Of a stretch of DNA of 27,435 nucleotides, positions 1,488 to 1,942 are shown piece by piece. This stretch comes from Eledone cirrhosa (taxonomy: Eukaryota). The position numbers and the translations under genes are program-made. Under the pieces are notes generated by a model that worked only from the letters and a program-made list of their open reading frames with translations, was not told where the DNA came from and searched no databases. Position 1 is the stretch's first letter. The number at the start of each line of letters is the position of its first letter. The stretch lies in NCBI GenBank assembly GCA_964016885.1, contig CAXHJY010000199.1, forward strand, positions 1-27,435, in the 5' to 3' direction.

Positions 1488-1525
1488 TACGATATTAAAT
1501 AAATGGAAACTATATTTATAAAACC

Positions 1526-1602
1526 ATATTTATTTCATTATATATATTTCAGGGATATTATATTAACAATATGCTATGCCTTCCTCAGACAAAATACAAT
1601 AT
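1526..1602 (-). ncRNA. Minimal type I hammerhead ribozyme, family 2 (inverted copy)
   Basis: Reverse complement of 1742-1818, with one substitution in stem II. Confidence 0.72.
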
Positions 1603-1741
1603 AGACAGTTTTATAGATAAATAGATTTGACATACCGTTCAACATCGACTTGTATTTGAAAAGTTGATCTGCCAAATCAACTTTTCAAATACAAGTCGAT
1701 GTTGAACGGTATGTCAAATCTATTTATCTATAAAACTGTCT

Positions 1742-1818
1742 ATATTGTATTTTGTCTGAGGAAGGCATAGCATATTGTTAATATGATATCCCTGAAATAT
1801 ATATAATGAAATAAATAT
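1742..1818 (+). ncRNA. Minimal type I hammerhead ribozyme, family 2
   Basis: Stem I ATATTgTATTTTGT / ATGAAATAAATAT; core CTGAGGA (1756-1762); stem II AGG-c-ATA-g-CATATT-gtt-AATATG-a-TAT-c-CCT; GAAA (1794-1797); palindromic stem III ATATATAT; predicted cut after AUA at 1805. Confidence 0.75.
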
Positions 1819-1942
1819 AGTTTTATAAATATAGTTTCCATTTATTTAATATCGTAAATATACTCCAAATATTTGTTGAGTGCTTTTATATCAGTTATAA
1901 ATATTTACTAGTTGTAACCCAACAATTTAAATATAACTTTTC

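Follow-up and report, generated by a model that had tools for sequence, protein, structure and literature searches.

Head-to-head palindromes with a one-sided tail have been described for Penelope-like elements (PLEs) in the available parts of Arkhipova et al. 2013 (PMC3846280) and Craig et al. 2021 (PMC8557442). According to the accessible portion of PMC11167929, the PLE tail spans the stretch from one internal RT start to the other. Dual hammerhead ribozymes located on opposite strands at a distance of 100-700 bp have been known since 2014 (PMC4209133, sections at hand). Here we analyzed a stretch of 27,435 nt from Eledone cirrhosa (the window), the bulk of which is degenerate (TA)n/TATATAC microsatellite with several retroelements inserted. 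Near its start there is a palindrome that is very probably one copy, truncated at its 5' end, of an abundant repeat with a hammerhead, likely representing the 3' end (pseudo-LTR, pLTR) of a second Penelope-like family, arranged as a head-to-head pair in the TA array and likely left as a by-product of insertion. Two features by which PLE insertions are recognized were found, i.e., the 5' truncation with an inverted head-to-head copy and two alternative 3' ends that define an optional tail.

The palindrome, its TA-array setting and the copies of its family

The arms (Table 1) are reverse complements over 181 bp and differ at two positions (1559/1785 and 1525/1819), as expected from the near-perfect palindrome of the initial annotation. 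The extent given there, 1488 to 1856, holds for the arms but not for the end of the insert, which runs to about 1942 through an 86-nt tail on the right arm only. The flanks match over 15 bp (1475-1489 and 1943-1957), but a match of equal length is expected in 20% of random flank pairs, so we make no claim of a target-site duplication (TSD), and this candidate was rejected as being at chance level.

Part of 1640-1942 is contained in 8 sequencing runs from four studies, and 4 of the 11 listed runs were compared with 1650-1950, namely X1 and X4 (organism A), X5 (organism B) and X9 (organism A, from a different study by RAD-seq, a biased subset of copies). X1 is possibly the source sample, and X6 to X8, with small word shares, were left out.

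Table 1. Coordinates within the window of the palindrome, its flanking arrays and its hammerhead motifs
Feature	Position	Strand	Remarks
Left flank, degenerate (TA)n/TATATAC array	147..1489		Polarity same as right flank
Left arm, inverted copy of 1676-1856	1488..1668	-	Stops at the proximal 3' end of the family, no tail; TA loose ends behind 1862 in X1, X5 and X9
Mirror hammerhead	1531..1596	-	Core from 1588; predicted cut at 1539; the change at 1559 adds one helix II mismatch
Fold-back spacer, 7 nt	1669..1675	+	Native element sequence; 5' truncation point of the copy
Right arm, 3' terminal (pLTR-like) segment with the sense hammerhead	1676..1856	+	
Type I hammerhead	1748..1813	+	Helix I 1748-1755/1806-1813 (8 bp, possible extension); core CTGAGGA 1756-1762; helix II 1763-1793; GAAA 1794-1797; helix III ATATATAT 1797-1804; predicted cut after A1805 (H17)
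Tail, 86 nt, one arm only	1857..1942	+	Ends at the distal 3' end of the family; covered in 4/4 runs; TA loose ends behind 1941 (X4) and 1947 (X5)
Right flank, degenerate (TA)n/TATATAC array	1943..4326		

Copies of the family over 1650-1950 were found in 3606 contigs of X1, 643 of X4 and 78 of X5, and in 34,873 reads of X9. The palindrome arm thus belongs to an abundant repeat family, present under at least two organism labels. The palindrome, in contrast, is a property of one copy, and its fold-back centre is rare among copies: depth at 1650-1660 was 97.6 in X1 and 0 in X4, X5 and X9, compared with 24,958 at 1672-1682 in X1. Upstream of 1669/1672, other copies run on into non-palindromic sequence (2 contigs in X1, 4 in X4 and 1342 reads in X9, with a median of 79 nt), which shows the spacer to be native sequence in the + orientation and the copy in the window to be 5' truncated. 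One X1 contig contains another inversion joint, at 1741/1793. Among the 24 of 346 loose-end rows listed, a proximal junction to (TA)n, with loose ends behind 1862, appeared in 33 contigs of X1, 3 of X5 and 5341 reads of X9 (the TA run starts near 1855), and a distal one, behind 1941/1947, in 3 contigs of X4 and 1 of X5. These two junctions coincide with the ends of the left and right arms, respectively.

Another PLE in the window (family 1) served as an internal control. It is near full-length (8100-11600), with a 775-aa open frame (8689-11016) that combines RT, GIY-YIG and a CX4CXXC linker, the last suggesting a Neptune/Nematis-like element. The Pfam domain RVT_1 was matched at an E value of 2.6e-6, just under the cut-off, and the closest named homologues are annotated in bivalves. 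The hammerhead of its pLTR, at 11406, has AGTACT as helix III, and about 42 nt past the cut there is TATATATA, which is noted within a pLTR in the accessible text of PMC3846280. Family 1 ends in the same TA array, at a junction about 165 nt past its cut, and a solo pLTR is located at 12625-12899. A second head-to-head palindrome, made of family-1 pLTRs, occupies 4330-4730; it has unequal arms, 122 paired bases and an 8-nt native spacer (4580-4587). The hammerhead of its - arm is intact (4543), whereas in the + arm helix I is altered and an internal stretch is deleted; both arms share a 15-nt insertion missing from the full-length copy. The native spacer belongs to the shorter arm, the one with the internal deletion. 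Of 500 shuffles, 378, 418 and 224 equalled or exceeded the local alignment scores between the palindrome arm at 1676-1856 and the family-1 pLTR. This bears out the initial annotation, which saw no similarity to the pLTR at 11330-11600 and proposed a second hammerhead-bearing family without a coding partner in the window. A likeness on the opposite strand was discarded at the same chance level (224-418 of 500 shuffles).

The array holds several other insertions. An unclassified repeat of about 610 nt has four copies (5926-6535, 1-144, 7622-7973 and 22998-23393) with 96-98% identity, which share a fixed end in TA repeats and are truncated to varying extents at the other; it had no Rfam match at the gathering score, and we presume that it resembles the non-coding part of an RTE-related element or a SINE. 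A LINE with frameshifted endonuclease and RT frames (15705-20014) ends in a TTCAAAGTTA repeat joined to TA repeats, and two further truncated pieces are located at 20909-21702 and 26690-27435; the descriptor used below found no hammerhead in this LINE. The - strand of 5527-5790 contains the 3' end of an element with an (ATAG)n tail and no Pfam match, which we take to be that of a probable RTE-type LINE. A 34-nt non-repetitive insert interrupts the TA array at 2545-2578.

Hammerhead motifs and their predicted folds

Each arm folds as a type I hammerhead with an extended stem II, as previously annotated. The core CUGANGA, GAAA, UH and the three helices are all present, and helix I is open. Helix II of the + strand motif has 12 bp, interrupted by two mismatches. 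When the arm was shuffled with its dinucleotides preserved, a relaxed hammerhead descriptor matched 1 of 3000 sequences, and none of the 3000 when helix I was set to at least 8 bp. The search with hammerhead models that had been proposed as a check came back empty (no match of the Rfam hammerhead models to the arms at E<=10), and among the 150 of 437 Rfam matches listed there were miRNA-type hairpins below the gathering score and no hammerhead family; the hammerhead call therefore rests on the descriptor and on the variation within the family. The label "minimal" used in the initial annotation does not fit, since helices I and II are long and an A-U pair replaces G-C at 10.1-11.1. The consensus of minimal hammerheads (min-HHRs) has G10.1-C11.1, an extra base after A9, a short helix I and little or no helix III, whereas here A1763-U1793 closes helix II, helix I has at least 8 bp and helix III spans 8 nt. 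The palindromic positions 15.2-16.2 plus loop 3 of that consensus are matched by ATATATAT, and its variant ATATGTAT self-pairs with wobbles. A reading of 1798-1805 as a TATA box would be possible and is weakened by the 1801 A>G variant.

The copies of the family provide an additional view of the motif. Variable positions amounted to 35 of 274, and the sole core position among the 40 of 63 variant rows listed was N7 (1760), variant in 68% of the X1 depth; the 11 conserved core positions had no listed variant. Their escape by chance has a probability of about 0.2 by hand calculation, weak evidence when taken alone. In helix II, several changes are double and preserve pairing: G1764-C1792 to A-U, A1767-U1789 to G-C and U1773-A1783 to A-U in X4 (5 contigs), and U1768-A1788 to C-G in X5 (1 contig). 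These changes were identified by visual inspection of loose-end consensuses that comprise few contigs. In variant copies the mismatch G1770/A1786 is replaced by a C-G pair, and the C1766/C1790 mismatch is kept in X4. Core conservation and stem covariation, by which the annotation was to be judged, are thus both present among the copies. Because other subfamilies differ in helix II and yet hold the same register, the fold is probably under selection, as judged from sequence variation. The variants in helix I (1808, 1819 and 1734) keep the pairing equally in the hammerhead and in an inactive register (see below). Unless A1763 is bulged, 1793 T>C (about 20%) disrupts the first pair of helix II in either register.

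A transcript of the whole palindrome is predicted to form a hairpin of -284.6 kcal/mol, in line with the earlier suggestion that it could fold back into long dsRNA. In a read-through transcript the antisense arm comes first, and within the hairpin the probability of hammerhead helices I and II is about 0 for both ribozymes, so that both would be sequestered. As the two ribozymes are on opposite strands, there is no dimer in cis. For a single arm in its native context, the models, which ignore tertiary contacts and magnesium, favour a register-shifted inactive helix in which helix III and the cut site are buried; its predicted advantage is 7.0 kcal/mol if helix III is closed and 4.1 kcal/mol if it is open. 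The fragment 1742-1818, put forward for a cleavage assay, appears ill suited for it, with predicted misfolding and a helix I pair probability of 0.02; helix I is predicted to prevail only in short fragments such as 1738/1740-1822, with a pair probability of 0.74. Such folds would fit cleavage assisted by a dimer or by protein, as has been reported for other PLE hammerheads. A long rod (1697-1854) that ends at the proximal 3' end and the tail of the right arm were no more stable than shuffles (z of -0.86 and -0.74, respectively), so no structural feature is assigned to the RT start sites.

Origin of the palindrome and the role of the TA target

By analogy with other PLEs, the anatomy and family pattern observed are most likely explained as follows. 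A PLE RT/GIY-YIG protein would nick (TA)n DNA, reverse transcription would start inside the RNA at the distal site (1942) and halt at 1669, and fold-back of the cDNA, or a second priming, would yield the inverted arm, with resolution at the proximal site (1856). Tandem precursor RNAs would be cleaved by the hammerhead after A1805. Since the monomer in its native context is predicted to favour the inactive helix by 4-7 kcal/mol, this cleavage would probably involve either a dimer joined by the self-complementary helix III or the help of protein. A simple snap-back is harder to reconcile with the family-1 palindrome, in which the native spacer sits on the shorter, deleted arm and would need a later deletion. 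Against the PLE reading as a whole are the lack of a linked RT/EN ORF, a tail of 86 nt that exceeds the published 30-40 nt, and a hammerhead that deviates from the metazoan PLE consensus.

The search for a coding parent gave no RT/GIY-YIG ORF for the family within the window, and the upstream sequence of other copies could be followed for only about 80 nt. The family motif had 0 matches in metagenome and viral contigs, none of 60 candidates in viral contigs was a PLE relative, and the arm matched none of 114 PLE-bearing loci with an E value below 0.1 (best, 0.11). It seems likely to us that the family has an ORF of its own. Since these searches found no coding parent, it could instead be a non-autonomous derivative of a pLTR or of a retrozyme, which we regard as possible and distinctly less probable. 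Among the loci compared, L001, L002, L005, L009 and L011-L038 are PLE-bearing contigs within bacterial genome records (symbiont and MAG assemblies) and are probably host animal DNA; the PLE copies of L011-L038 adjoin (GT)n repeats. A U3-A8 core variant of PLE hammerheads (TTGANAA) is common in L080, L083, L089, L095, L098-L102, L107 and L109, in some cases beside C3-G8 in one contig, and is described in the available part of PMC4209133.

A stand-alone non-LTR retrozyme, i.e., a short non-coding tandem unit with a circular RNA, represented here by an inverted fragment, appears improbable. The long helix I and the 2-bp helix III with a tetraloop are nearer to the invertebrate retrozyme hammerheads in the accessible part of PMC7229834 than to min-HHRs, the very high abundance is centred on the hammerhead, and retrozymes derive from pLTRs according to the available text of a preprint (10.64898/2026.07.22.740005). 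However, contigs of three runs contained no head-to-tail joint within 1650-1950, a comparison that units longer than about 350 nt would escape, and the few go-back joints were confined to RAD reads (2-6 reads), one of them with CATG between the sides and maybe a ligation chimera. The fixed 3' ends at TA and the steep 5' fall-off in depth fit truncated retroelement tails.

The initial annotation also proposed a possible mechanistic link between helix III and the target, which share the same repeat. Such a link could take two forms: the cut after A1805 would leave an (AU)4A RNA that primes on nicked (TA)n, or the uncut helix III would act as a guide by pairing. We consider this link very unlikely. 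Priming of (AU)4A on (TA)n predicts copies that end at 1805, but the junctions to (TA)n are located about 50 and 140 nt past the predicted cut, and there is no junction or step in depth at 1805/1806. X9 depth is flat across the cut (23,442 at 1793-1803, 23,825 at 1804-1814 and 23,922 at 1815-1825), no loose end fell at 1805 among the 24 of 346 rows listed, and the table of beginnings and ends lists only 1722, 1871 and 1927. Furthermore, helix III reads ATATGTAT in 37% (X1), 67% (X4), 49% (X5) and 66% (X9) of the depth. This sole listed helix III variant (1801 A>G) still self-pairs through U.G wobbles (-2.2 versus -3.2 kcal/mol), which would be expected under a dimer constraint. The variant also occurs as a word in the TA array, and the presence of both 8-mers in the left flank, (AT)4 231 times and ATATGTAT 89 times (as reverse complement), speaks for a link, as do the location of helix III in the deepest-covered part of the family while helix II diverges and the precedent of Terminons, which expose target-complementary repeats just downstream of the hammerhead (PMC6431247, available part). 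On the other side, a palindromic A..T 8-mer at the local base composition is (AT)4 with a probability of 0.09 and all-A/T with 0.75, and the same array received family 1, with its AGTACT, and retroelements without a hammerhead.

Other PLEs give a similar picture. In the 114 loci the descriptor found 39 hammerheads, of which 33 scored palindromic and 4 had ATAT; (TA)5 or longer followed within 600 nt after 1 of the 4 ATAT hammerheads versus 3 of the 35 others (AACGTT, AGATCT and AGCGCT), in a comparison where many rows come from one data set and are not independent, and where short TA runs may not be targets. An (AU)3 helix III is already in print, in 6 of the 44 alignment rows compared from the available supplement of PMC4209133, Drosophila virilis Penelope among them, and an A/U-only helix III in 10 of the 44, with the GAAA column, detached in that text, placed from the consensus row. 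Naiads prefer (TA)n without having canonical hammerheads, and Neptune also shows a (TA)n bias (PMC8557442, accessible part). PAc primes at sites non-homologous to the target, and its hammerhead mutants insert normally in vitro, the ribozyme being dispensable there (PMC11167929, sections at hand). Searches of open-licence papers gave no report tying a hammerhead helix III to a microsatellite target. (AT)4 likely meets, in an AT-rich form, the need for a palindromic helix III, and the choice of target is likely made by the protein. In an elaborate version, the AU-repeat helix III would act as a target-reading switch: the monomer would bury it in the inactive register, a second RNA would free it for dimer cleavage, and nicked (TA)n DNA would instead base-pair with it, preventing cleavage and placing the RNP 50-140 nt upstream of the RT start. 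We give this version very little credence. If it were true, the dimer palindrome of the ribozyme would double as an RNA guide for microsatellite targeting, and PLE hammerheads, whose function in endonuclease-bearing elements is called unclear in the available part of PMC8557442, would gain a role in target recognition.

That the palindrome itself is the selected unit, as a two-ribozyme or hairpin-RNA device or as a MITE with terminal inverted repeats, seems extremely unlikely. The near-perfect 181-bp arms and a predicted hairpin that, if transcribed, could feed small-RNA pathways would favour it. However, the centre is missing from three of the four runs and reaches less than 0.5% of the neighbouring depth in the fourth, other copies have native sequence across it, the arms are unequal, any TSD is at chance level, neither hammerhead is predicted to form in read-through RNA, and the same layout recurs in the unrelated family at 4330-4730. 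The MITE-like behaviour that would have spoken against the annotation is thus not what the copies show. Perfect fold-backs are a known long-read artefact and the junction was seen in one run only, but an origin in sequencing or assembly is extremely unlikely, as there are 2 differences between the arms, the arrays on either side have one common strand polarity and do not mirror each other, the left arm stops at a family-wide end and X1 contigs (even if X1 is possibly the source sample) cover the junction.

Comparison with known systems

The reading we prefer, a truncated PLE-type insertion, agrees in several points with the pLTR insertions of endonuclease-bearing PLEs in the available parts of PMC3846280 and PMC8557442. 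They share the head-to-head palindrome, the tail on one arm, the 5' truncation, a (TA)n target that hides any TSD and a hammerhead in the terminal repeat. Unlike the inverted PLE insertions described in those parts, the tail has 86 nt versus 30-40 nt, and the family is known here without a linked ORF and is unrelated to the other PLE of the window. Its ribozyme resembles the PLE hammerheads in the accessible portion of PMC4209133 in being of type I, with a CUGANGA/GAAA/UH core, a palindromic helix III and dual motifs on opposite strands. It differs from them in its (AU)4 helix III (2 bp plus a tetraloop), a helix I of 8 bp plus extension and a helix II of 12 bp with a C.C mismatch kept in variant copies. 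In addition, A-U takes the place of G-C at 10.1-11.1, and A9 is not followed by an extra base in the register supported by covariation.

Animal non-LTR retrozymes, as described in the available parts of Cervera and De la Pena 2020 (PMC7229834) and Li et al. 2026 (10.64898/2026.07.22.740005), are also non-coding, low-GC, abundant and related to pLTRs, with a type I hammerhead and a 2-bp helix III, but no tandem head-to-tail order was seen here in contigs over 1650-1950, and the arrangement is inverted, not direct. The Terminons/Athena elements in the accessible text of PMC6431247 offer the published example of a hammerhead beside a target-complementary repeat. Their repeat is downstream of the hammerhead at the 3' end and the target is the telomere; in the present family helix III itself contains the AT run, and the 3' ends follow 50-140 nt later. 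The locus provides a small negative test, in that the AT-repeat helix III is not where the copies join their AT target. Compared with these systems, it very probably adds one hammerhead-bearing PLE-type family, with an unusually long tail and an atypical ribozyme characterized by a long helix II, a kept C.C mismatch, an A-U closing pair and a predicted inactive register.
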